Below are positions 31,283 through 45,086 of a DNA stretch of 64,000 nucleotides, piece by piece. Position numbers and translations under genes: made by a program. This stretch comes from a virus. The first letter of the stretch is position 1. Every line of letters begins with the position of its first letter. The notes below the pieces were generated by a model that did not search any database, was not told the origin of the DNA, and saw only the letters and a program-made list of their open reading frames with translations. Location of the stretch: IMG/VR virus record IMGVR_UViG_3300032261_000561; one strand, written 5' to 3'.

Positions 31283-34200
31283 TCATTTAAGGTAATTCGG
31301 GACGAGCACGGCGCCATAAGCCCAGGCATTAGGGCTGAGGATGGCGGCCTGGCAGCTCACCTCGTTGACCGGCGTGGTGTTGGAGACGATCGCCAGCCCG
31401 GCGTAGCGCAGCGCGGTCACGTCGTGCAGGAAGTTGCCTTCGCCTCCTAACCTGGCAAAATAGCGAATTTGGGCTACATCCGTCCAGGCGTCGTTGAGAT
31501 AGAAGTCCCCGCCCGCGTCACCGGACACCCGCACTTCCAGGGTGTAGATCTGATCGGGCACATCGGGGATCTCGAAGAACGGGGTCTGCAGCAGGTACCA
31601 GAAGCCCGCGATCTTATCGGGGTTGAAGGTGTGCTGGTAGATGTAGACACCGTCGGACAGCCGCCGCAGCCGCAGGATGACCTGGTCCCCGTCGGCCACC
31701 GGCTTGAAGAACTGGCAGTTGAGCCGGGCCAATGCGTTGGGCACAAAGCCGGTCACCTGGCGGATGTTGACCCCGGCCTCGCCGTACCCGGCCGCCCGGG
31801 TGATGTGCAGCACCCGCTTACCGTTGTAGTTCATGTTGGGGTCGACGTTGATGGACACCACCGCGAACGGCTCGCCCCACACGATGGTGGGGTCGGCCCA
31901 CTTGGCGTTGTCGTCGCCCCAGGTACCCGACGGGACGGTGGAGGGATAGGTGCTGGTGTAGTAGGCCAACTTGGTGGAACTGATATTGGTGTCCAGCGGA
32001 TCCGCCTGGGCCCACATGTCGTCGGAGCGCACCGTGCCCGAGTCGGTGAACTCGAAGTTGACCTTGACGAAGGTGGAGCTGGTGATCAGGTCGGTAAAGA
32101 CGGTGCCTTCCACCACGTCGGTGGAGTTGATCAGCACGGTGTCGAACCAGAACTGCCCGGCCCCCGTGGTGGCCCCCACCACCAGCCCGATCTTTAGCTC
32201 GGTTGCGCCGTCAGGGATCTGGCCGTTGACGGTAACCAGCTGGCCGTGACCGGAGCCCCACAGGCTAGTGCCGGAGGCCGTAATGCTCGTGGTGTCCTGA
32301 TTCAGGAAGTTGCCGTCGGCGTCGTAGTAATTGGCCGCCAGCACCACCGGCGTGCCGGTGGTGACGTGCTGCCACTGCACCCATACGCTGAGCGCGAAGT
32401 TGGCACCGGGCGTGACCTCCGGCCAAGCGGTGACCAAGGCACTCAGCAGCTCCTTTTCGGTGCCGTCGGCGGTGACGGTGGCCGCGCCGTACTGGTATTT
32501 GCCCTGCCCCGGGTCGATCGACCAGCTGCCCTGCGCCTGGTCCCAGTTGTCCAGCGTGGTATCGAACAGGGGGTTCTGGATCTGATAGGTGATACCCGCC
32601 GTGGAGATCGGCCCGCTGGGCAGCTGGACGATGTTGTGGTAGAGCCACTGCTGGGGGTCGTACAGGGAGAACTTGAAGACGGGCGGATCCTGGGTGGCGA
32701 TGTAGCGGGTGACGAATGCGCTGACCTCGCGGACCCCGGCGAAGTAGGCGATCGCCGCGTCACGCACCGCCGTGCGGATGTCGTACTGGTGCACGCTGGT
32801 GGTCAGGAAGCGCAGCCGGTAGGTGGTAGCGGGCTTGCGGTTCAGCGCAGTCTGCAGCGCCTGCGTCAGCCCGGTCATCACGTTGGCGGCCAGCGCCAGG
32901 GTCTGACCGGGCACCACCCAGAAGTCGGTGCCCTGCAGGGGCAGCGACGTCGCGGAGGGGGTGAAGTTGATCAGCGTGTTAAAGGCGCCTGCGATATTGC
33001 CGACCACGTTGTTGATCAGCGGGTTGAGCACCTGCGAGCCGGTGTCATACAGCATGCTGTTGAGATTCTGGGAGGCCAGCACGGCGGTGTTGATCAGCTC
33101 GCGCCGGTAGATCCACGGCGAGGAGATCTCGTTGGTGTTGCCATAAGCTGAGGAGCCCACACTGTTGGGCACCGCCGGGACGGTGGAGGTGGTGTAGCCC
33201 GGGCCCACCTGGACGGTGATCGGGCTGACCGTCGAGTTGAAGATCGAGTTGACGGCGGCGGTGATCGAGTTGGCGTTGAGCCAGTTGACGCTGCCGATGC
33301 CGCCCCCGAGAATCTGCCCGGCCACCGCGAGGATGCCCGCGCTGATCGGCGGGGCGGTCTGGGTCTGGGTCACCGAGATCGGGAAGACCTGATACATCAC
33401 GTTGATGCCGGAGTCGTAGACCGGGTAGGGCTCCTCGGTCAGGTTGGTGAATTCCAGTTGCAGATAGCTGACCATCACCGGGTGCGGGAAGAAGTACTTG
33501 CCTTTCTGGGTGACGTAGTTGGCGAAGATCGGGGTCCAGATTTTGGACTCGTAGAAGCTGGCGTGCCCGCCACCGCACGGCATGTCCTGCAGCGTCCAGT
33601 CCACCGCCAGGATGGCGTCGTCCAGCGTGGTGGACGGCACCCTGCCGGTGTGGGGATCCGGCTGCACCGGATCGGGGTTGACGTAGACCGAGGGGTTCGC
33701 CTGGAAAGCCTGGTAGGAGTTGGTGTAGCTGTCCAGCTTGACCACTAGCGCGGTCATGACCCCCTGGAAATCCTTGTAACCCACCTCGCCGTCGAAGGTG
33801 ATCTTGGTGGGCAGGTTGGGAGCGGGCAGTGTGGTGTTGACCAGGCTGGTGCCGTCGGGCAGCACCACCGACAGGAAGACCTGCGGCACCGGACTGCTGT
33901 AGACCCACCCGGCCACGATGCGCAGCGGGATGTACGGTGCCGGGGGCGGGTAGAGGGACGCCGAGAAGAGGATCGGGGTTTCCCCGTTGGTGAATTCGAG
34001 CACCACTTCCAGGGCACCGCAGTCGAAGGAGAGCACGGGCCAGTACTGATCACCCCCGGCATTGGGCGGGAAGACCCCGGTCACGGTGGTGACCACCTTG
34101 ATGGTGGGCTGCGGGATGCCGGTCAGCGAGTCGGTGTACTGCAGCAGCGGCACCGGCTGCTGACCCAGCGCCCCGTAGAAGCTCGCCGCCCACGGGCCCC

Positions 34201-35401
34201 CGGCATTCCCGGTCACCATGATGTTGCCGATGCCCAGCAGGGATTCCAGGGCTGCCTGGATGTCGTCTCCGGTGGCGGTATCGGTCAGCGGGCCGGTGTA
34301 GTTGATGCCGTCGAGGCTCAGCGCGAACGAGCCGCCGGTCGCCGTGCCGTTGAGGGAGATCATCTGCACGGCGCTGATCCCCGGCGCGACACCGAACAGG
34401 GTGGGGTTGACCGGCGGCGCGTTAGTCACCGGGTCGAAGTTCGGTGTCCACACCACCCCGATCCACGCGGGCTGGCTGATCTGTGGCCCAACTGCCATGG
34501 GTACCACGTAGACACTGGTCTGACCGGGGTCGGAGATGTCGATCAGCCCGATCCCAGCCGTCCACTGGGTGTTCTCGTCGAGATCCGGCGGCAAGCTGAT
34601 CGGGCTCAACTTGCGGGTCCCCACCGTGTCGTCGGTCGAATAATAAACATTTAAATTCTGGTTGGTGTAGACGGGGTCCAGGTACAGCGTGTCGATTAGC
34701 TGCGGCGTGCCATCGGGGTTGCGGAAGTCCAGGTAGAGACTGACCACCGCGTCGGGGCCGGGCTGCGGAGAACACTTCCAGAAGGTGGTGGGCTTGTCGT
34801 CGATCGCATCGGGAGCGTCCCAGTCCTGGATGTATTTGGTGATAACGTTGCCCAGCGCGTCCTGCTCGGGCTCCATGGCCTGGGTGCCATCGTTGCGGGC
34901 GTAGATGTTGCGCCGGATCAGCCCGTTGCGCAACCCGATGTTGAACGGCCGGTTGCCCAACGTGAGATCGAGGTTACGGCTGATGCGGAACTGCACCGCC
35001 CGAGCCACGATCGGGTAGGTGTAGACGTGGTACTTGTACCAGGAAACCTCCTGGCTGGGCGCCAGCGTGATGGTCATCGGCTGGTAGTTCTCGTCCCGCA
35101 TCTGGATCCAGTTGTTGTTGCGATCCTTGTACCAGACGTTAAAGGTGCAGGCCACCCGCATGATCTCGATCGAGAACTCCCCGATGGACAGCGGCAGCTT
35201 GAAGTTGATGGTCAGGATCTCCTGGGTGGGGTCGCTGCTCGGCCGGGGCTGGGAGAACCACACTCGGGCCACCGGCAGGTCGGCCAGCTGCGGCACGTTG
35301 GGTGCGTACTGCTGGTTGGAGATCAGGTCGTTGAGCAGGTTCACCAGCGTCAGTGGCCAGTGGTAGTTCAGGTACATGCCGTCCAGGGCGCTACCGACCA
35401 T
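31283..35401 (-). CDS. Large baseplate/minor tail protein with carbohydrate-binding-like modules
   Basis: 1372 aa at the end of the baseplate cluster; IQNPLFDTTLDNW...FWFDTV resembles a CBM; ATGGSFALS...DIQAALESL module. Confidence 0.7.
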   Translation of the reverse strand: MVGSALDGMYLNYHWPLTLVNLLNDLISNQQYAPNVPQLADLPVARVWFSQPRPSSDPTQEILTINFKLPLSIGEFSIEIMRVACTFNVWYKDRNNNWIQMRDENYQPMTITLAPSQEVSWYKYHVYTYPIVARAVQFRISRNLDLTLGNRPFNIGLRNGLIRRNIYARNDGTQAMEPEQDALGNVITKYIQDWDAPDAIDDKPTTFWKCSPQPGPDAVVSLYLDFRNPDGTPQLIDTLYLDPVYTNQNLNVYYSTDDTVGTRKLSPISLPPDLDENTQWTAGIGLIDISDPGQTSVYVVPMAVGPQISQPAWIGVVWTPNFDPVTNAPPVNPTLFGVAPGISAVQMISLNGTATGGSFALSLDGINYTGPLTDTATGDDIQAALESLLGIGNIMVTGNAGGPWAASFYGALGQQPVPLLQYTDSLTGIPQPTIKVVTTVTGVFPPNAGGDQYWPVLSFDCGALEVVLEFTNGETPILFSASLYPPPAPYIPLRIVAGWVYSSPVPQVFLSVVLPDGTSLVNTTLPAPNLPTKITFDGEVGYKDFQGVMTALVVKLDSYTNSYQAFQANPSVYVNPDPVQPDPHTGRVPSTTLDDAILAVDWTLQDMPCGGGHASFYESKIWTPIFANYVTQKGKYFFPHPVMVSYLQLEFTNLTEEPYPVYDSGINVMYQVFPISVTQTQTAPPISAGILAVAGQILGGGIGSVNWLNANSITAAVNSIFNSTVSPITVQVGPGYTTSTVPAVPNSVGSSAYGNTNEISSPWIYRRELINTAVLASQNLNSMLYDTGSQVLNPLINNVVGNIAGAFNTLINFTPSATSLPLQGTDFWVVPGQTLALAANVMTGLTQALQTALNRKPATTYRLRFLTTSVHQYDIRTAVRDAAIAYFAGVREVSAFVTRYIATQDPPVFKFSLYDPQQWLYHNIVQLPSGPISTAGITYQIQNPLFDTTLDNWDQAQGSWSIDPGQGKYQYGAATVTADGTEKELLSALVTAWPEVTPGANFALSVWVQWQHVTTGTPVVLAANYYDADGNFLNQDTTSITASGTSLWGSGHGQLVTVNGQIPDGATELKIGLVVGATTGAGQFWFDTVLINSTDVVEGTVFTDLITSSTFVKVNFEFTDSGTVRSDDMWAQADPLDTNISSTKLAYYTSTYPSTVPSGTWGDDNAKWADPTIVWGEPFAVVSINVDPNMNYNGKRVLHITRAAGYGEAGVNIRQVTGFVPNALARLNCQFFKPVADGDQVILRLRRLSDGVYIYQHTFNPDKIAGFWYLLQTPFFEIPDVPDQIYTLEVRVSGDAGGDFYLNDAWTDVAQIRYFARLGGEGNFLHDVTALRYAGLAIVSNTTPVNEVSCQAAILSPNAWAYGAVLVPNYLK

Positions 35402-35416: not shown

Positions 35417-38326
35417 TCATGACGACGTGCTCGCTCCCGCCGGTGCCCCCGACGACGTCGTGAAAGCCCCGGCCACCCAGCCGGTGGAAGTGCTGATCAA
35501 CGGGCGCGCACGGGTGAGCGACCTGGACACTGTGGACTCCTGGGTCGGCGCGATGTAGGCGATGGCCAGATCGGGGGTGAACACCTCCTTGGTGATCGCG
35601 GATTGCCCGAGCGGCAGCCGGAAGTGGAACTGGTCGGCCTGCCCGCCCATGCTCTGCACCTGGGTGATCTTGGCCGCGATGTAGGTCTGCTCGGACGGCC
35701 AGGGGAACACGTAGGGGGTGCCGTCGGGATTGACCGCCGGGGCATTCGCCGGAGTCTTGCCGAACTTGCCGCCCGGGTAATTGTCTGGGCTGTCGATGAT
35801 GTCGTAGGTCTGCCAGGGCCCGTAGTTGGACACCGAGGTGAAAGCCTCGAAGTTCTGCGCTGGCCGGTAGGTCCGCATGGGATCGGGCGCGGGTACCACG
35901 TAGGGGACGGAACGGCTGGCGAACGTGTTGAGGTAGTCGCGCGCGATCTGGTAGCCACTGCGGGGATCCCCGGCGATCTGGGTGACCGTGTCGTAGGTGG
36001 CGTGCGGGTCCTCGGTGGACGCGTAAGACACCGTGGCCAAGATGTCGGCCTCCACCTGGGCCACGTTCACCGGCGCGGTGGGGAACTGCCGCGTGATGAC
36101 GCCCGGGTCACCCGCATAGGCGGCGATCGTCGCGTCGAAAATGGTTGCCGCCCACAGGTCGTCAGTGGTGTTCCCATGGGTGCACAGCAGGTCGTCGGGG
36201 TTAGCGAACTCCCACCACAGGGACTCGGTACCGCTGAGCCGGTTGGCCGAGATGCCGTGGCCGCCGGGATCGGTGCCCTCGGGGAAGATGACGCCCGCCT
36301 CACGCCGGGGGGAGCCGAAAGACACCGCGCCCAGCAGATCCACCCGGCGGTGTTGCATGGCGCCGGTGCGCAGCTGGTCATAGACCGTGGAGGTGACGAT
36401 GGCCCCGATCCCCCGCCCGATCAGCAGGAAGGGCCCGATGTTGCGGTTGATCATGATGATCAGAGCGGAAACGGCCGCGTCAATGCCCTCTTGTAGCGGC
36501 AGCTCGTTCAGCATGGGCCACGGCACGTAGACGTAGCGGATGCGCGAGTCCAGCTTGCCGTCGAACCACGAGGTGGGGGGATTGGCCAAGTAGTCGGTGA
36601 CCTCGTAGCAGGTGACCTGGGTGGTGACCGCAGGCGGGGCCAGCGCCGCCAGGCTGGGGATGGACAGGCTGTTGATGTAGTCGGCGCCGATCTGGATGCA
36701 GTTGCGCGCGTCACCGGGGACCGGGTGGTAGTTGGGGTTCTGGTAGAGCCCGTGCGCACTGTTGGTGACCACGCCGTAGAACAGATCCAGGAAGTTCTGC
36801 AGGAGGATCTCGGCGTTGGTGATGGCGCCGGTGAGCAGCGCGGCCAGCGGGGACAGGATGCCGTTGTAGCTGTTGTAGATCAGCTGGTACACGGCTTCGT
36901 TGTTGGAGCCGGGGACGGTGTCGTGATTAGTGCAGATGAGATCGCCGGGTGCGGCGAACTCCCACCACAGCGGCTCACAGTCCTGCAGCAGCTCCCAGCC
37001 CTGCACGCCGTGCCCGCCCGGGTCTGGGCACATCGGGAAGGTGACGCCGGGCTGGCGCCGTGGGTTGCCGAAGGCCAGGCCAGCCAGCAGGTCTGGGCGC
37101 CGGGCCTGCAGTGAGCCGGTGCGGATCTGGTCATAGACGTCGCTGATGATGGTGGCGCCCTGGTCGTAGCCCACCAGGATGAAGGGGCCCGGGATCGAGT
37201 TGATCGCACCGATCAGGTTGGCCACTCCTTGGGCCACGCTCTGGTTCATCGGGTAGAGGTCAGCCTGGTAGGGCACCGGGACCCACTGGAAGAAGTCGGC
37301 GTTCAGGTTTTGGGAAAACCAGTCGTCGGTGGGCACGCCCAAAGCCACGTTGCTGACCAGGTTGAAGGCTCCCGACAGCTCGAAGACGGTGACTTTCACC
37401 GGCCCGAAAGGGTTGATGGTGCCGTAGGTCACCGAGTCGATCGGGCTGCGGCTACCCCCGCCCACCAGGTAGTAGTATGCATACTCCTGGCTGATGTTGA
37501 ACTGCGCGTACGGCGCCAGTGTGGGATCGCCGGAATACATCCACGTCTCGGTGGGCAGCAGGTCGATGGGCAGCAGATCCGGCGGCGGCAGCTGACTCAT
37601 AATCGGGGTCGGCGTGACGATTTTCTGGACCTCGAAGTAAGTCGAGTCGGCGGCGGCCGCCACCGCGAACACCGGGGTGAGCACCGGAATCCCGTGGACG
37701 TTGACGGTGATGACGATGTCGATGCTCATGAACCGGGAGAGCATGTCGCGCACCAGCCGCATCTCCTCGGGCCCCATGGAATCCTTGTGCGGCTTGATCA
37801 CCAGCTCGTTGCGTGCGCTGGACGGGGAGCGCCCCATGTCTAGGGTGATGCCGAAATTATCGATGTACCTCCATATTTCAAACGTGTCGCAGTCCACCGA
37901 CGACGCGGCCTGCACACACATGCGCACACCCTCGACGGTCGAACCCAGTCCGCAGGCCTTGAAGAAGTCGCGGATGCGCGCCCGGTACCACGCATCCTTG
38001 ACCCTGACTTCGTTCCACTGCGGGGCCGTCAGGGTGTCCCGCGAGGGGTTGTAGGGGTAGGACTCCTCGGGTGCGCGGACCAGGATGGCGGTGTTGCCAA
38101 AGACATAGTCGAGGTCGGTGCCAAAGATCGTCTCCATGGCACCGGCCAGCCGGGCGACGAACACCTCGTTGACCAGTCCGCCCGCCCCGCAGGTGCCGCA
38201 GATGGCGTCGATCAGCTTGTACAGGTTGGTATCCGGCGTGCCGACATAAGCGGTGTCGTCGCAGTGCATCAAGAGCATCTCGGTGCTCTTGGGAGGCATC
38301 CACGGCCAGGGGTTGTTGGTTGGGAT
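35417..38326 (-). CDS. Baseplate wedge-like protein containing two LysB/cutinase-like alpha/beta-hydrolase domains
   Basis: Follows baseplate J; GYDQGA...FGNPRR...GDLIC...AHGLY and GRGIGA...FGSPRR...DDLLC...PHATY; probable ATC start at 38326 (first ATG at 38299). Confidence 0.78.
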   Translation of the reverse strand: MPTNNPWPWMPPKSTEMLLMHCDDTAYVGTPDTNLYKLIDAICGTCGAGGLVNEVFVARLAGAMETIFGTDLDYVFGNTAILVRAPEESYPYNPSRDTLTAPQWNEVRVKDAWYRARIRDFFKACGLGSTVEGVRMCVQAASSVDCDTFEIWRYIDNFGITLDMGRSPSSARNELVIKPHKDSMGPEEMRLVRDMLSRFMSIDIVITVNVHGIPVLTPVFAVAAAADSTYFEVQKIVTPTPIMSQLPPPDLLPIDLLPTETWMYSGDPTLAPYAQFNISQEYAYYYLVGGGSRSPIDSVTYGTINPFGPVKVTVFELSGAFNLVSNVALGVPTDDWFSQNLNADFFQWVPVPYQADLYPMNQSVAQGVANLIGAINSIPGPFILVGYDQGATIISDVYDQIRTGSLQARRPDLLAGLAFGNPRRQPGVTFPMCPDPGGHGVQGWELLQDCEPLWWEFAAPGDLICTNHDTVPGSNNEAVYQLIYNSYNGILSPLAALLTGAITNAEILLQNFLDLFYGVVTNSAHGLYQNPNYHPVPGDARNCIQIGADYINSLSIPSLAALAPPAVTTQVTCYEVTDYLANPPTSWFDGKLDSRIRYVYVPWPMLNELPLQEGIDAAVSALIIMINRNIGPFLLIGRGIGAIVTSTVYDQLRTGAMQHRRVDLLGAVSFGSPRREAGVIFPEGTDPGGHGISANRLSGTESLWWEFANPDDLLCTHGNTTDDLWAATIFDATIAAYAGDPGVITRQFPTAPVNVAQVEADILATVSYASTEDPHATYDTVTQIAGDPRSGYQIARDYLNTFASRSVPYVVPAPDPMRTYRPAQNFEAFTSVSNYGPWQTYDIIDSPDNYPGGKFGKTPANAPAVNPDGTPYVFPWPSEQTYIAAKITQVQSMGGQADQFHFRLPLGQSAITKEVFTPDLAIAYIAPTQESTVSRSLTRARPLISTSTGWVAGAFTTSSGAPAGASTSS

Positions 38327-38335
38327 GGTGTCCTC

Positions 38336-40867
38336 CTACGGGCTCGCTACCCGTGTGATGATGGCGCCCAGGTAGTAGGCCACCTGATTATCGTTGAGCT
38401 TGAAGTCGTCGTCGTACACCGCGATCGGGTCAGGGTCCTCGGAGTTGGCGAACACCCGCACGCCGTGAACATCAGGATTGTCGGTAGTGGTGGTGATTTT
38501 GACGTCGTCCACGCCCAGGATTTGAGTGACCACGGTGCACAGCATGGTGAATTTGATCTGGGCCCCGAACGGACAGGCGGCGACGAAGCTCTGCAGCCGG
38601 GTGGCCAGTGCCGCATTGACCACGGCGGGGGAGTAACTGCGGTTGTATTCGATGGACAGGCAGGGCTGCAGGTAGACGTAGTCGGCTTGATGCACCAGCA
38701 CATCGGTGCACAGCTGTTTGGAGGAGGTCATCACCGAGTCGAGGACCTCGGGCACCTGGTTGTACACGTATTCTAAGGTCAGCTCGGTGCCGGTGGTCGG
38801 GCCGGTGGAATCCCACTCGATCCCCGAGGCCTCTAGGCGCGAGCCCTGCAGCTCTGTGCGGTCGGCCAGCACGTAGTAGTGGGTGCCCATGATGTAAATC
38901 TCGGGACCCACCGTCAAGGTGGGTGGGAAGGTCACCAGCGGCACATTGCCCAGTCGGGTGTAACGGTTGGTGGCCGTCGGATTGCCCGGCGAACCCATCC
39001 GAATGAAGTTGCCGGTGTAGAGCGGGTCGTCGACCAGACTGGAAAGCGTGACGCCGCTGATGATGGTCTGCTCGGTGACACTGTAGGGCGCGATGCCATC
39101 GCAGAAGATGTCGACTTTGTTGGTGATCCCGTTCACCGGGTCGTTGCGGCTGCAGGTGGGGGTGTATTGGAATTCCAGGTCGACGATGTCGTCCTGATTG
39201 ATCACGCCGGTAGCCACCCGGGTGAACACCGGCGAGACGCCGGTGGACAGCATGTAGTCGTCGCCCTCGGTGTAGAACGTCTCGTCTTCCTGGCCCAGGT
39301 TGATGAAACAGCTGGTCATACCGGTGTTGTGGCTCAACAGCCCTTCTGCCACCAAGGTGTTGGTCGAAGTAGACAACGCCACCACATCCTGGACGCCAGC
39401 TTCTTCGACCGATATCACCTTGGCGAAGTTGCTGTTCTTGCCGACGATGCAGCTTCCGTACAGATCGCTCATGAACTTAGGGGCGAGTCGAGCGCTCTTG
39501 AAGATGCCGAAGAAGCGCAACCGCTCATCCATACCACCATGAAGCAAGATCTCCTGGCAGCAAGGGTCGGGTGATAGACCTGTGCTGCGGGTTCGGGCTA
39601 CGGAGTGCTTGAACTTATTCCTGGCCAGCAGGTCCACGATCTTGTCGAAAACCGGGCCGGGGTTCTGCAAGATCGTGACATTGTGCTTGTTGTAACTGGC
39701 CTCGCCGTCAGTAATCCCGGCCATCCAGCCAGCCTCGAAGGATAGATCCTCATCCCAGGAAGGAACGTATCTGATCTGGTCACCAGGCAAGAGATCCTTG
39801 GTTTTGACCCACTGAACATTCTGGGTGTTTCGGATGACACCGCGTCTCTTGCCCGTATGTCCGACACGTCGCCCAGAAACCAGCCACATGTGATCAGCGG
39901 TGGAGGTGACCGTGGTGCCGTTATCCATCGTCACCATAAGGGTGCGAGCAGGACAGATATAAGACTGCGTAACCCGAGACTGACGCCACTTTCTCTTATT
40001 GCCGCGCCCCTCGACAGACTCGTCGAACCCGACGATCAGATCTCCAACCCGAAGAGAGCCCACGGGCACCCAGTCCAGGCCGTCGGTAAGGACTCGTGTC
40101 TCTGGGATGAGGCACCATACGTACTTGACGTCCTGGTCGACCGGCAGCGCTACCGTCGTCGAGGGCGCGGCGATCTGCGTGGTGTAGAGCACGGTGGGAC
40201 CGAAGACAATCACCCGGGTGACCGAGGTGTTTTGCTGGCATAGCGCGATGTACCAGTCGGCGGTCCCGGCCACATTGCGCAGGAAGGTGTCTTTGAAGCG
40301 CTGCCTTAACGCATCGTCGGTCTCGGGGTCGGTGCCGTCGGTCATGGCCTGCAGGTTGGTGACCGCCGAAGATCCGATCGCGGTGGACAGATTGGTGACC
40401 GCGCCCGGCGGCACGTTGCCCGAGACACCGACCGTGGTGCAGGTGACCGGGACGTCCACCGAGTAGTCACCGGCCGGGAGCACCACCGACTGGTTGGCCG
40501 CGTAGTACAGCTGCACACTGGCCCCGGCCAGACCGGCGGTGGTGTAGAAGGTGGTGCCCTGCTGGATGGTGTAGTCGGTGGTGGAGGCCACCGTCAGGGT
40601 GACCCGCACGGTGCCCTGCGCATAGGTGCCCTGCAGCCTGCCATAACCGAACAGCCCGACGAACTGTTCCAGCTCCATCCCGGCCTTGGTGTCGACGTCC
40701 AGCAGCGAGCCCAGCAGATAGGTGTCGATGGAGGCGGCCGCGATCTGCTCGGCGCAGGCGTCGATGATCTTGCGCTCCGGCGTACCAATGGCACACGACA
40801 GCGTCGGCATGGTCAGCGCCAGCTGGGCCAGAATCTGCTGGCTGATCTGGTCAGGTGTACCGGGCAT
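38336..40867 (-). CDS. Baseplate J-like protein, intein-containing
   Basis: AQGTVRVT, VTCTTVGVSGNVPPGAVT, TDGTDPETDDALRQRF...AGT: baseplate J signature. Confidence 0.9.
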   Translation of the reverse strand: MPGTPDQISQQILAQLALTMPTLSCAIGTPERKIIDACAEQIAAASIDTYLLGSLLDVDTKAGMELEQFVGLFGYGRLQGTYAQGTVRVTLTVASTTDYTIQQGTTFYTTAGLAGASVQLYYAANQSVVLPAGDYSVDVPVTCTTVGVSGNVPPGAVTNLSTAIGSSAVTNLQAMTDGTDPETDDALRQRFKDTFLRNVAGTADWYIALCQQNTSVTRVIVFGPTVLYTTQIAAPSTTVALPVDQDVKYVWCLIPETRVLTDGLDWVPVGSLRVGDLIVGFDESVEGRGNKRKWRQSRVTQSYICPARTLMVTMDNGTTVTSTADHMWLVSGRRVGHTGKRRGVIRNTQNVQWVKTKDLLPGDQIRYVPSWDEDLSFEAGWMAGITDGEASYNKHNVTILQNPGPVFDKIVDLLARNKFKHSVARTRSTGLSPDPCCQEILLHGGMDERLRFFGIFKSARLAPKFMSDLYGSCIVGKNSNFAKVISVEEAGVQDVVALSTSTNTLVAEGLLSHNTGMTSCFINLGQEDETFYTEGDDYMLSTGVSPVFTRVATGVINQDDIVDLEFQYTPTCSRNDPVNGITNKVDIFCDGIAPYSVTEQTIISGVTLSSLVDDPLYTGNFIRMGSPGNPTATNRYTRLGNVPLVTFPPTLTVGPEIYIMGTHYYVLADRTELQGSRLEASGIEWDSTGPTTGTELTLEYVYNQVPEVLDSVMTSSKQLCTDVLVHQADYVYLQPCLSIEYNRSYSPAVVNAALATRLQSFVAACPFGAQIKFTMLCTVVTQILGVDDVKITTTTDNPDVHGVRVFANSEDPDPIAVYDDDFKLNDNQVAYYLGAIITRVASP
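39326..40114 (-). mobile_element. Intein (263 aa) with a LAGLIDADG-type endonuclease remnant
   Basis: Block A CLIPETRVLT, block B TSTADHMWLV, GWMAGITDGEAS, block F/G VVALSTSTNTLVAEGLLSHN followed by Thr; lower GC than flanks. Confidence 0.93.
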
Positions 40868-40879
40868 GGACGGCGCCCC

Positions 40880-41296
40880 TTAGACGCTTGACGTTGTGCT
40901 GGTGGTTGCCGTGGCCCCGCTGCCGGTAGTGACCGACACCGCCACGCTGACGGTGTCATACGTGATGCCTACATCAACGGCGGTTAGTGCGTTGAGCAGC
41001 TCCTCGAAGCTGAAAATCTGTGGGTTGTTCTGTAAGGCCAGATTCTGAATGGCCTGATAATTGCCCAGCACCCGGTCGACTTCGCCCTGGACCCGCGACT
41101 GCGTGGTCAAATCGATCACCCCGCCGATGAAATTCGGCAGCACCGAACCGTAGCGGGGATGAAATCGGTCGACTCCCAGCCGCTCGGTCAACCACAGCGA
41201 CATGTCCTGTTCGAGTTTCTCGATGCCCGAGACGATGGCCAGGCTGGATCCCCGTTGCACCAGGTCCCCATTTTGAAGTGCGAGGCTGAAGGTCAA
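40880..41296 (-). CDS. Baseplate wedge / gp25-like protein
   Basis: GDL...VSG.EKL.Q...L..R.G...FHPRYGS.L; immediately upstream of baseplate J. Confidence 0.75.
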   Translation of the reverse strand: MTFSLALQNGDLVQRGSSLAIVSGIEKLEQDMSLWLTERLGVDRFHPRYGSVLPNFIGGVIDLTTQSRVQGEVDRVLGNYQAIQNLALQNNPQIFSFEELLNALTAVDVGITYDTVSVAVSVTTGSGATATTSTTSSV

Positions 41297-42271: not shown

Positions 42272-43507
42272 CTACGTCTTGATCAGGTAGTTGAGGACGA
42301 TGGTCGGCTGGACAACATTGTGCGTTCCACCGCCGCCCGCGTAGATCGCCTGGTACTGGCCGTTGAAGTTAGAGCCACCAGCGAGACCCGACGCTGATAT
42401 AAACCCATTCAAAAAGGAACTGTGGTGGTGCGACGGCATCTCTCCGTATGACAAGGTGTGAACTTGTTCGCCGCCAGCAGCGCCGAGGGTGGCACCTGCT
42501 GCGCCAAAAGGTGAACCGCCCACCCATAGCTGAAATTCTGTCGCCGCCACATAGTTGGTACCGGGAGGGGTGACTTGGAGGTAGCGCCAGGTTTGGGCAA
42601 CCGGCAACCGGACCAGACCGTTGGTGGAGCCGGTTTGGCCGTAGCCCGGAAGGGTCATCACGGTCGTCCAGGCGGTGCCGTTGTTGCTGCCTTGTAGCAA
42701 AAAGCTGTCGAGGTATTGCGGTCCGAAACCGCCAGGGATATTGGTCAGGTAATCCCAGCCCAGGACAACGGAGTCGATGTATTGCGACGAGCCGAGGTCG
42801 GCGCGGATGTAGCTACCCGCCGCCGAAGTGGTGGCAGCTTGCTTGACGGTCGCACCGGAGGCGCTACCATCGTTCATTCCGGCATAGTTGGCCGCTGTCG
42901 TCCCTGGATACACCGATGATTGCGAGTAGACCGCGTTGGTGGCTTGTATTCCCTGAGTCAGTCGGGACGCGGCGGTGCCGCCCATGTTGTCTTTGCCCGC
43001 CACTGCGCGCCCCCGCATGTCAGGGACGTTGAAGGTGGTGTTGCCGTCGCCGTAACCGTGCGGCGAGTAAACCAGAGAATGGGTGCCGCTCTGGCTGCCC
43101 GAAGTGGCGATTGTGACACCGGACACCGCGTTGGCGAAACTGGTCGCGATGCTGAACGTGTTGGCGTCGATGTAGATGACGTAATACGTTGTGCCAGCTG
43201 TGATTCCGGTAGGCAATGCCCCTGTGGTGCTGAAGATAACCGGATCGCCTGTAACCAAACCATGACCGGTGAGAGTGACCACAGCCGGGGTAGCAATCGT
43301 GATGATGGGGTTACCCAGCGTCGGGTTGAGCGTGGTGAACAGGTTGGCGTAGGTGATCCGCGAGACCGCCTGCCCGTAGCACAGCAGCCAGCCAGCGGGC
43401 ACCACCAATGATGATCCGGCGAACGGCATCACGGCTCCGGTGAAGATCCCCACCGTCATGGCGTCGGCGGGCCGAGAAGGAGCGGTGCCTAGTTGTGGTT
43501 GTGCCAT
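42272..43507 (-). CDS. Tail-collar-domain fibre protein with inserted modules
   Basis: GAVMPFAG...PAGWLLCYGQAVSRITYANLF, GDGNTTFNVPDMRGR, GGEQVHTL..EMPSHHH, HNVVQPTIVLNYLIK. Confidence 0.88.
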   Translation of the reverse strand: MAQPQLGTAPSRPADAMTVGIFTGAVMPFAGSSLVVPAGWLLCYGQAVSRITYANLFTTLNPTLGNPIITIATPAVVTLTGHGLVTGDPVIFSTTGALPTGITAGTTYYVIYIDANTFSIATSFANAVSGVTIATSGSQSGTHSLVYSPHGYGDGNTTFNVPDMRGRAVAGKDNMGGTAASRLTQGIQATNAVYSQSSVYPGTTAANYAGMNDGSASGATVKQAATTSAAGSYIRADLGSSQYIDSVVLGWDYLTNIPGGFGPQYLDSFLLQGSNNGTAWTTVMTLPGYGQTGSTNGLVRLPVAQTWRYLQVTPPGTNYVAATEFQLWVGGSPFGAAGATLGAAGGEQVHTLSYGEMPSHHHSSFLNGFISASGLAGGSNFNGQYQAIYAGGGGTHNVVQPTIVLNYLIKT

Positions 43508-43514
43508 CAGACTC

Positions 43515-45086
43515 CTACAGCGGGATCACGGCGATGCGGCGATACTGAAAGCTGGCGGTCCCACCGAAAACGGCGTATTTCATCTTGAAAGTCGTCGCAC
43601 CCTGCGTTAAACCTGTTAAAAGAAACGGGGCCCCAAAACTGATTGGTACATTAACGCCCGTCGCCGCGTATTGGAGGGCCTGGTTAACAATTGCCGTCGC
43701 GGTGTTTGCACCCGACAACGCAAAACCACAATATGCATAGTCACCAGTGACGTTGTTAGTTAACATAGCATACAATAAAACCAGCGCCATCCCGCTCGCC
43801 CCGATATTGACGGTGACCTGATCGGTGGTTGTAGCCAAATCCGCAAAGGACCCTGACGTGGTGCTTTCCGAGGTCGCCACATATGCGCTCTGCGCGTTCT
43901 GTAGCGGTGTCATAGTCGCCAGGGCCGCTGCCGCACTCGCGGCAGTGAGTAAGTTCGACCCCGCCGTTGTCGCCCCAATTGCCGTCTGCGCTGCGCCCGT
44001 ACTCGCCGCTGTGAGCAATGCTCTGCCGATACTGGTGGCGTCGGTGATCGCGGTGGAGGACAGGCCCGAGATGATGCCGCCCTGCACGACCACCACCAGG
44101 CTATTGAGCGCGGGTGCGGTCTGAAAGGTCAGGGTGAGGCTGTTCACCGAAGTCAGCACCCGGTCGGCGCTGCACATGGCGAAGGTGCTGGCGTTGTACA
44201 GGTTCACCGTCACCGCACGGGTGCCCAGGTTGTGGTTGATGGTGAACACCGTGGTCGAGCCATCCCCGATGGTCTGGGTGTAGACCGAGGTGTTGGACGG
44301 CATTGCCCCACCCAGCACCACCACCGCGTAGGCGTTGGTCGCGGGTGCGGTGGCGAACGTCAGGGTGACGTTGTTGAGATCGGTGAGGAACTTGTCGCAG
44401 TTGACGACCTCGTAGGTAGCGGCGTTATAGACCACTACGGTGACGTTGCGGGTGCCCAGATTGTGATTGATGGTGAACGTGGTCAGCGACCCGTTGCCGA
44501 TGGTGGCGGTGTAGACCGCAGGCGACACGTATTGCCAGGACTGATCGCCGCGTAGGAAGCTGCCGCTGTTGGCTGCACCAGTGCCCAATTGGGCCGTGGG
44601 TACGACGCTGGTGGCACCCAACCCGGCGTAACCGTTGGCCGCACCCTTGTGGGAGAGCACCTCGATGCCCGCACCGGCCAGCGTATTAGCCCCCGTGCCG
44701 CCGCTGGCCACCGGGAGCAGACCGACGCAGTTGTTGGCCAGGTCCACCGACAGCGCATTCCAATAGGTGCCGTCGTTGACCACCATCAGCGATCCCCCGG
44801 CGGCGATGGTCATCGACACGATTGATGCACCCAGCCAGATATGGTCGGCCCCGACTGCGGTGAGCGTGATGGCCGCCGACCCACGGTTCTCCAAGATGTG
44901 CATAACGCCGACGTTCCCGGCAACCGGCAGCAGTGACCACGTGGTCGGCGCGCTGCCGGTGAAGACATAGCAAGAGTTCGCCGCCGTCAACGTCAGCGTG
45001 GCAGCCGAGCTGGTGACGACGGTCTCTGCGATCCAATCTCGTTGGACAGGGAGCGCCTGTTCTCGGAGGTTCAGTTTGCTGGTCAT
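43515..45086 (-). CDS. Tail fibre / minor tail protein
   Basis: Duplicated YT.TIG.GS.T.FTINHNLGTR.VTV module; KGAANGYAGL; LGTGAANSGSFLRGDQSW. Confidence 0.8.
   Translation of the reverse strand: MTSKLNLREQALPVQRDWIAETVVTSSAATLTLTAANSCYVFTGSAPTTWSLLPVAGNVGVMHILENRGSAAITLTAVGADHIWLGASIVSMTIAAGGSLMVVNDGTYWNALSVDLANNCVGLLPVASGGTGANTLAGAGIEVLSHKGAANGYAGLGATSVVPTAQLGTGAANSGSFLRGDQSWQYVSPAVYTATIGNGSLTTFTINHNLGTRNVTVVVYNAATYEVVNCDKFLTDLNNVTLTFATAPATNAYAVVVLGGAMPSNTSVYTQTIGDGSTTVFTINHNLGTRAVTVNLYNASTFAMCSADRVLTSVNSLTLTFQTAPALNSLVVVVQGGIISGLSSTAITDATSIGRALLTAASTGAAQTAIGATTAGSNLLTAASAAAALATMTPLQNAQSAYVATSESTTSGSFADLATTTDQVTVNIGASGMALVLLYAMLTNNVTGDYAYCGFALSGANTATAIVNQALQYAATGVNVPISFGAPFLLTGLTQGATTFKMKYAVFGGTASFQYRRIAVIPL

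Follow-up and report, generated by a model that had tools for sequence, protein, structure and literature searches.

A lysis-enzyme fold that lies within a baseplate gene and has lost the catalytic serine from both of its copies raises the question of what such a fold might do for a phage other than cut. The locus belongs to a 64,000-nucleotide stretch of viral DNA (IMG/VR record IMGVR_UViG_3300032261_000561; hereafter the window, meaning the whole stretch analysed), and its source is an uncultivated soil myovirus related to the cluster C and Phrappuccino-type mycobacteriophages. The gene encodes a DUF7297 protein of 960 amino acids (aa), a well-supported baseplate wedge protein, and tandem LysB-derived domains of cutinase fold are inserted into a loop on the surface of its distal portion. 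The explanation favored here, which the sequence evidence gives about an even chance of being correct, is that the insertion serves as a LysB-derived pseudo-esterase module on the baseplate, binding mycomembrane lipid and gripping the envelope rather than cutting it during adsorption. The parts of the gene are as follows:

35417..38299, minus strand: whole gene (P0001), 960 aa, DUF7297 baseplate wedge protein (well supported) with a 503-aa tandem LysB-like insertion (open reading frame and translation)
37409..38299, minus strand: N-terminal DUF7297 scaffold part, residues 1-297, probable wedge/triplex-like fold (Pfam match over residues 1-297, profile positions 10-306)
36641..37402, minus strand: LysB-like domain 1, residues 300-553 (phrog_102, E 8.6e-39; Protein Data Bank entry 3hc7 by sequence and by fold; limits from hidden Markov model (HMM) domains)
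35900..36625, minus strand: LysB-like domain 2, residues 559-800 (phrog_102, E 3.3e-25; 35% identical to domain 1; predicted local distance difference test score (pLDDT) ~80)
35420..35899, minus strand: C-terminal DUF7297 scaffold part, residues 801-960 (~160 residues; second PF23970/phrog_2813 stretch, aligned to the C-terminal region in homologues that lack the insertion)

Two LysB-like domains without a nucleophilic serine

The initial annotation had described two tandem paralogous domains of the LysB/cutinase type in the gene following baseplate J, and this description is borne out by both homology searches and structure prediction. The two domains match each other with a BLASTP E-value of 4e-44, and their phrog_102 matches were obtained with the isolated halves of the insert. 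In a Pfam search, the insert passed the cut-off for PE-PPE (PF08237; 28.5 bits against a cut-off of 21) and fell just under that for Cutinase (PF01083; 23.6 bits against 25.9), while a phmmer search of the Protein Data Bank found the LysB of mycobacteriophage D29 (3hc7), with Asp379 aligned to Ser82 of its GYSQGA motif. Both insert domains were modeled by AlphaFold2 with a pLDDT of ~80, and Foldseek placed the model with the alpha/beta hydrolases of cutinase type, the top match being 3hc7 (E 1.8e-8; template modeling score by target 0.65), followed by Rv3802c and MSMEG_6394 (5w95, 3aja) and then by fungal cutinases. Rather than forming a free-standing lysis protein, the LysB-like domains are embedded between two DUF7297 halves. 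Domains 1 and 2 are not sisters on the domain tree, where deep nodes are weak, so that the pair may have arisen either by an old duplication or by two acquisitions made separately.

The catalytic residues of D29 LysB are Ser82, Asp166 and His240, with Thr12 and Gln83 at the oxyanion site, and among LysBs the serine and aspartate are absolutely conserved and the histidine weakly so (PMC7022511); the LysB motifs quoted in the initial annotation agree with this source. The positions equivalent to the triad were located in the two domains by alignment and HMM columns:

37154-37171, minus strand: GYDQGA elbow of domain 1, residues 377-382
37163..37165, minus strand: Asp379, codon GAC, nucleophile position of domain 1 (D29 Ser82; phmmer/HMM alignment)
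36941..36943, minus strand: Asp453, equivalent of the triad aspartate (D29 D166) in domain 1, invariant in 10/10 homologues
36752..36754, minus strand: His516, equivalent of the triad histidine (D29 H240) in domain 1, invariant in 10/10 homologues and aligned with the histidine of the stand-alone LysBs of two other contigs (G001, G003)
36401-36418, minus strand: GRGIGA elbow of domain 2, residues 628-633
36410..36412, minus strand: Gly630, codon GGG, nucleophile position of domain 2 (D29 Ser82; alignment and HMM columns)
36191..36193, minus strand: Asp703, equivalent of the triad aspartate in domain 2, invariant in 11/11 homologues
36002..36004, minus strand: His766, equivalent of the triad histidine in domain 2, histidine in 10/11 double-domain homologues

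Both domains thus keep the acid and the histidine and carry aspartate or glycine in place of the nucleophile, just as the initial annotation had read them, and its motif coordinates and codons proved exact. The oxyanion threonine (D29 T12) is also replaced, by Ala311 in domain 1 and by tyrosine in domain 2; every other domain 1 sequence has threonine or serine at this position, alanine being confined to the window's lineage. The GNP motif is retained as GNP in domain 1 and as GSP in domain 2. No serine lies within two residues of the elbow in either domain. Ser386 and Ser637, found seven residues downstream of the elbows, were considered as substitute nucleophiles and rejected, since both are also invariant in the homologues that carry the usual serine.

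The replacement of the serine is not a product of faulty data. Both GAC and GGG are two base changes from every serine codon, as had been pointed out at the outset, and a sequencing error is excluded by the presence of the same aspartate and glycine at the nucleophile positions of two further viral contigs (82% aa identity), and by contigs of four additional soil metagenome runs, which cover one or both nucleophile codons with zero differences. When the gene was compared with the 82%-identical relative, the ratio of nonsynonymous to synonymous substitution rates (dN/dS) was 0.15 for the N-terminal scaffold, 0.40 for domain 1, 0.23 for domain 2 and 0.22 for the C-terminal scaffold. Purifying selection therefore acts on both LysB-like domains and is most relaxed in domain 1. 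In a rough comparison of domain and scaffold trees, domain 1 sequences lacking the serine showed no systematic excess of branch length over those bearing it when branches were set against the scaffold. An artefact of sequencing or assembly, or a decaying pseudogene, consequently has a negligible probability, given the open frame of 960 codons, the identical copies in other soil runs, the shared aspartate and glycine in the 82%-identical contigs and dN/dS values below 1. Near-identical copies of the gene (at least 95% of sampled words) turn up in 20 or more soil metagenome runs dating from 2018-2019, which makes this phage a common one in the soil data set, and there were no RNA runs among the sequencing runs listed for the gene.

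The DUF7297 scaffold and its genomic setting

The assignment of the host protein to the baseplate is based on family membership, gene order and fold. The 960-aa protein matches PF23970 (DUF7297; E 1.4e-187) in Pfam and phrog_2813 (E 3.6e-172) in PHROGs, in each case as two stretches, which in Pfam flank the insert, and the 292 shorter DUF7297 homologues recovered at E<=1e-10 are mostly ~450 aa long. In the alignment, a stretch of 503 residues in the window protein, immediately after a conserved SPIDSVTYGT motif, corresponds to 2-3 residues in insertion-free homologues, which supports the original placement of a LysB/cutinase fold in a baseplate protein and shows the fold to be an insertion. 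Among 50,697 isolate phage genomes, tblastn matches came from cluster C mycobacteriophages and Phrappuccino and covered the N- and C-terminal parts only (~45% coverage, 52-56% identity), while a megablast search of isolate phages with the gene gave zero matches. The insertion-free Phrappuccino protein gp87 (449 aa) has the same synteny as the window gene, in the order small baseplate protein, baseplate J, a 69-aa open reading frame (gp86), gp87 and a large minor tail protein. Homologues of the DUF7297 family carry the depositor labels "virion structural protein" or "minor tail protein".

The full-length AlphaFold2 model was poor over the DUF7297 parts (pLDDT <50), and an insertion-free homologue (P0017) was modeled instead from a 71-sequence alignment. 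All top structural matches of this model, which cover residues ~55-205 only at a mean pLDDT of 68.7, are baseplate chains of contractile systems. The match to the diffocin triplex (8v3w_N) gave middling scores in VIA-align (Z 9.3, root-mean-square deviation 3.7, 99 residues aligned), and further baseplate matches include phiCD508, pyocin R2, Mu, A-1(L), T4 gp6 and TssG; with Foldseek, the probabilities were 0.96-0.99 at E-values of ~2e-3, with nothing at E<=0.001. Synteny and fold together, short of proof, make a baseplate wedge role for the DUF7297 protein well supported. The window gene occupies the position right after baseplate J in a contractile-tail module, with the following neighbors:

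40880..41296, minus strand: small baseplate protein, 138 aa (phrog_2669, E 4.2e-44)
38336..40867, minus strand: upstream baseplate J-like wedge protein, 843 aa (Baseplate_J, PF04865, E 2.7e-26; phrog_6, E 3.1e-67)
31283..35401, minus strand: downstream minor tail protein, 1372 aa (phrog_2840, E 0)

Several features of these neighbors may be recorded here. The baseplate J gene is longer than its counterparts in Phrappuccino and the contig L027 (843 aa versus 584-594 aa), and its extra ~263 aa (especially positions 39326-40114) give a weak Intein_splicing match (E 0.0056; 16.9 bits, under the 35.8-bit cut-off). The baseplate J stop codon and the DUF7297 ATG lie only 36 in-frame bases apart (38300-38335), and DUF7297 homologues begin 7-10 residues further upstream (e.g., MNSPWPWLPPKSTE), so that this ATG may not be the true start, or read-through may occur. 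The 1372-aa phrog_2840 protein of the window has no LysB-like domain, and its N-terminal 447 aa give only a weak F5/8 type C match. Further upstream on the minus strand lie a 411-aa tail protein (42272-43507) with phage tail collar and F5/8 type C (discoidin) domains, and a 523-aa protein (43515-45086) matching virion structural and head-decoration PHROG families, which we read as Ig-like; both are candidates for additional host-binding parts of the same baseplate.

Nucleophile history and the wider family of tail-fused domains

Regardless of the state of the nucleophile, the tandem architecture recurs in a set of double-domain relatives, comprising 10 further DUF7297 proteins from a large protein database and more from viral contigs. 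In the comparison of homologous wedge proteins proposed at the outset, the domains prove to be an insertion and the aspartate is not conserved. Among 12 double-domain homologues, the nucleophile of domain 1 is serine (P0004, P0005, P0006, P0007, P0008 and L007), glycine (P0009, P0010 and P0012), asparagine (L008) or aspartate (the window, P0003, L005/L006 and P0011), whereas domain 2 has glycine in all but L008 (asparagine) and never serine. A single-domain relative (P0015) has the serine and lacks the histidine. In the alignment of ten insert sequences, about one-quarter of the columns are invariant or nearly so, including all four aspartate and histidine positions, and in domain 2 the triad aspartate and histidine and the GNP, DPGGHG and WWEF motifs stay conserved, even though domain 2 has been without its serine since the common ancestor of the family.

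The tree of the scaffold columns groups these proteins as (L008 Asn, (P0011 Asp, (L007 Ser, (P0004 Ser, (window Asp, P0003 Asp))))), with clade support of 100/100, and contains a second clade in which serine and glycine are mixed; inserts have been gained or lost at least three times on this tree. Serine is probably ancestral in domain 1, because stand-alone LysBs carry it, in which case it would have been replaced at least five times in domain 1 among twelve double-domain proteins, and the aspartate of the window would have arisen independently of that of P0011. Since domain 1 often retains the full Ser-Asp-His triad elsewhere in the family, the double-dead state appears to be derived and specific to certain lineages, and the ancestral protein was probably a virion-borne esterase. 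The codons seen at the nucleophile position are AGC (serine, L007), AAC (asparagine, L008), GGC (glycine, L007 domain 2) and GAC (aspartate, window). As AGC leads to AAC or GGC and from there to GAC in single steps, aspartate is two single steps from serine by way of residues that are observed in the family, a path that seems to fit drift after inactivation better than the recruitment of aspartate as a new nucleophile.

The LysB-like domains are also found well beyond the DUF7297 family. A domain profile searched against 1.84 billion representative proteins returned 540 matches at E<=0.001, and many of the best 150 of these are 600-2362 aa long. Of six long proteins checked with PHROGs, most combine a LysB-like domain with minor tail families (phrog_2840, 7565, 346, 746, 2106 and 2689) in independent fusions, and one matches phrog_102 only. 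In four proteins (P0013, P0014, P0016 and P0152), a LysB-like N-terminus with serine or glycine is fused to phrog_2840, the homologue of the gene downstream in the window. The gene order of L027 (small baseplate protein, baseplate J, insertion-free DUF7297, and a 1612-aa phrog_2840 protein with an N-terminal, serine-bearing LysB-like domain), when set against that of the window, indicates that the module can be carried by one or the other of two neighboring baseplate genes. Minor tail proteins of the phrog_110 (siphovirus) type are likewise involved. Two smaller actinophage contigs, G004 (L010:9665-12511; a 62.8-kb contig rated 100% complete) and G003 (an 894-aa open reading frame), have a stand-alone LysB plus a LysB-like N-terminus on a phrog_110-type minor tail protein, and the elbow of L010 reads GCQEGA, with glutamine at the nucleophile position. 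Five unrelated long proteins (P0162, P0168, P0177, P0266 and P0139) each contain one serine-bearing and one glycine-bearing LysB-like domain, so that a live-plus-dead LysB-like tandem seems, as judged from the sequences, to be a recurrent design.

The state of the nucleophile was counted in 152 well-covered domains. In proteins longer than 600 aa, the serine is present in 52 domains and absent from 30 (25 of which retain both the aspartate and the histidine), and in proteins of 420 aa or less, which may be fragments truncated by contig ends, it is present in 55 and absent from 4. On the tree of these 152 related domains, the state changes between serine and non-serine at least 18 times. When the five fused architectures were compared with the 50,697 isolate genomes, no counterpart covering >=80% was found, and the domain appears in isolate genomes only as "lysin B" among the matches listed. 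Two related contigs, G001 (96% complete) and G002, additionally encode a normal stand-alone LysB with serine, and the baseplate copies are therefore not the lysis enzyme. No second LysB was found in the window's 125.7-kb contig (84% complete), an uninformative result since the contig ends ~8 kb before the position syntenic with that of G001.

Possible roles of the module and comparison with known systems

If the favored reading is correct, both domains would be pseudo-esterases in the window's lineage, having lost the cleavage of mycolyl esters, and the retained pocket (the Asp-His pair, the GNP motif and the hydrophobic residues after the aspartate) would bind an ester-linked lipid of the mycomembrane. 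The ends of mycolyl-arabinogalactan, trehalose mycolates or similar molecules are candidate ligands. Displayed on the baseplate periphery, the module would use the bound lipid to keep the baseplate anchored to the waxy outer membrane while the phage adsorbs. Contractile baseplates have a conserved two-plus-one wedge stoichiometry, and if it holds here, there would be ~6 copies of the protein, and thus 12 LysB-like domains, per baseplate, presumably exposed on the virion. A role in lipid-binding adsorption, which had been the functional suggestion of the initial annotation, is strengthened by the combination of purifying selection, the recurrent loss of serine with aspartate and histidine kept, and the repeated fusion to tail proteins.

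Several observations weigh against this reading. The conserved aspartate and histidine may play a structural part or serve a different chemistry, and the presence of the protein in virions is deduced from homologue annotation, synteny and fold. The association between fusion and loss of the serine is only a trend in the expected direction when phylogenetically independent pairs are counted (3.7 versus 1.1, median p 0.375). Most of the tail-fused relatives keep the full triad, and the main job of the family may therefore be catalysis, which this lineage may simply have lost. Additionally, no other part of the protein is under weaker constraint than domain 1 (dN/dS 0.40), a pattern that slow decay would explain as well.

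In an alternative explanation, the ancestor was an active virion esterase and the dead domains have been kept as structural decoration, either for folding and assembly or as a spacer, without any specific ligand. The probable ancestry and repeated loss of the serine are in accord with such a vestigial module, as are the dN/dS of domain 1, the highest in the protein, and the many DUF7297 proteins that work without an insert, inserts having come or gone repeatedly. However, dN/dS is well under 1 in both domains, and in domain 2 the triad aspartate and histidine and the GNP, DPGGHG and WWEF motifs remain invariant despite the absence of serine since the common ancestor. As insertion-free forms are viable, a useless insert of 500 aa should be easily deleted, yet it is kept in two clades, and a vestigial module is regarded as unlikely, although it retains appreciable weight. 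Alternatively, some catalysis may persist, with Asp379 acting as nucleophile in the manner of dehalogenases or epoxide hydrolases, or with water activated by the His-Asp pair in the space left by glycine, so that an ester or other bond of the host envelope is cleaved. Asp379 occupies the very position of the nucleophile at the elbow, His516 and Asp453 are kept, and the aspartate and histidine are retained in 25/30 non-serine tail domains, which is striking in view of the weak conservation of the histidine in true LysBs (PMC7022511). The initial annotation had itself offered an Asp-nucleophile hydrolase as its alternative for domain 1, but this is disfavored by the glycine or asparagine that occupies the same column in close homologues with the rest conserved, since a function shared by the family cannot need aspartate. 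The oxyanion threonine has become alanine, the loop at the oxyanion site reads LSGAF and is not of the HGXP type, the Pfam search returned no epoxide-hydrolase or dehalogenase family (only PE-PPE and Cutinase), and aspartate can be reached from AGC by single steps via glycine or asparagine, as expected of drift after inactivation. Residual or non-canonical catalysis is thus improbable. It is more improbable still that the dead module has its role late, at release rather than entry, for example by docking soluble LysB or cell-wall fragments; the separate LysB kept in related genomes speaks for such a role, and the pairs of serine- and glycine-bearing domains in other proteins hint that dead copies assist live ones, but the domain occurs in a baseplate gene and in minor tail proteins of relatives, which act at adsorption, and the binding of wall debris at release would trap progeny.

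The favored reading of a lipid-gripping module can be extended, tentatively, to the whole family. Tail- and baseplate-borne domains of the LysB fold could constitute a widespread and undescribed apparatus for mycomembrane entry in uncultivated actinophages, in which domains with intact triads cleave esters of mycolyl or trehalose lipids where the phage adsorbs, those lacking the serine but keeping the Asp-His pair act as mycolyl-lipid "lectins", and the walk between AGC, GGC, AAC and GAC switches between receptor-destroying and receptor-binding states, the window protein being purely binding. This broader scheme is possible but doubtful. The reviews of mycobacteriophages consulted describe only peptidoglycan-directed virion enzymes and LysB only as a lysis enzyme, with no virion-borne lipolytic domain. 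Literature searches for virion- or tail-borne LysB, LysB-like tail domains and cryo-electron microscopy of mycobacterial myovirus baseplates found nothing relevant, within a partial coverage that leaves novelty unproven. The window protein is a fully serine-less form of a class that is itself apparently undescribed in the literature, assembled from parts that are known (the LysB fold, virion-associated enzymes and pseudoenzymes).

The recognition and crossing of the mycolic-acid outer membrane by mycobacteriophages and their relatives are largely unexplained. A LysB fold on the baseplate that some lineages keep live and others keep in a dead but conserved form provides a concrete and cheaply testable hypothesis of mycomembrane recognition, and if the module does bind, nature would have supplied in its dead form a probe for lipids that contain mycolates. 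The occurrence of the fused forms in metagenomes only, and not in isolate genomes, points to biology overlooked when phages are isolated on a small number of laboratory hosts.

Amongst the closest known systems is D29 LysB itself (gp12, 3HC7; a mycolylarabinogalactan esterase), with which the window domains share homology, a common fold, the GxxxGA elbow, the GNP motif, the triad aspartate and histidine and a long linker between these two residues. Unlike D29 LysB, they have neither the serine nucleophile nor the oxyanion threonine, and they form a tandem insert in a baseplate protein instead of a soluble protein of the lysis cassette. The DUF7297/phrog_2813 proteins of cluster C, Phrappuccino (gp87) and the Gordonia phage RedWattleHog are 52-68% identical to the window protein in their N- and C-terminal parts and occupy the same gene position, after baseplate J and before a large phrog_2840 protein, but are ~450 aa long and lack the 503-aa insertion. 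The serine-bearing double-domain relatives (P0004, P0005, P0006, P0008 and L007) share both family and architecture with the window protein, domain 2 being dead in all of them, and the LysB-like domains fused to other tail proteins (P0013, P0152, P0193, P0207 and P0141) belong to the same family as the window domains. In the serine-bearing relatives, domain 1 or the single domain keeps threonine with Ser-Asp-His and is presumably an active virion-borne esterase, whereas the window's lineage has aspartate and alanine at the corresponding positions.

Alpha/beta-hydrolase pseudoenzymes also serve as adhesion or receptor modules in other settings, as in the neuroligins, where glycine replaces the serine, and other cholinesterase-like adhesion molecules. 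The hydrolase fold is kept, the serine replaced and a binding function adopted, although the subfamily and the organisms are unrelated and the analogy is one of principle only. Enzymes carried by virions include the peptidoglycan hydrolase motif of the TM4 tape-measure protein, the lipase/esterase domain of staphylococcal phi11 Tal and the O-antigen deacetylase tailspikes (PMC6116005, PMC5380687), and an inactivated phage endosialidase serves as a binding reagent (PMC5380687). In the virion enzymes, as in the window protein, a fold of the lysis or degradation type forms part of a tail or baseplate protein that meets the envelope at infection. Those enzymes are, however, active and directed at peptidoglycan or polysaccharide, whereas the fold in the window is of the type expected to recognize ester-linked lipid and is catalytically disabled.

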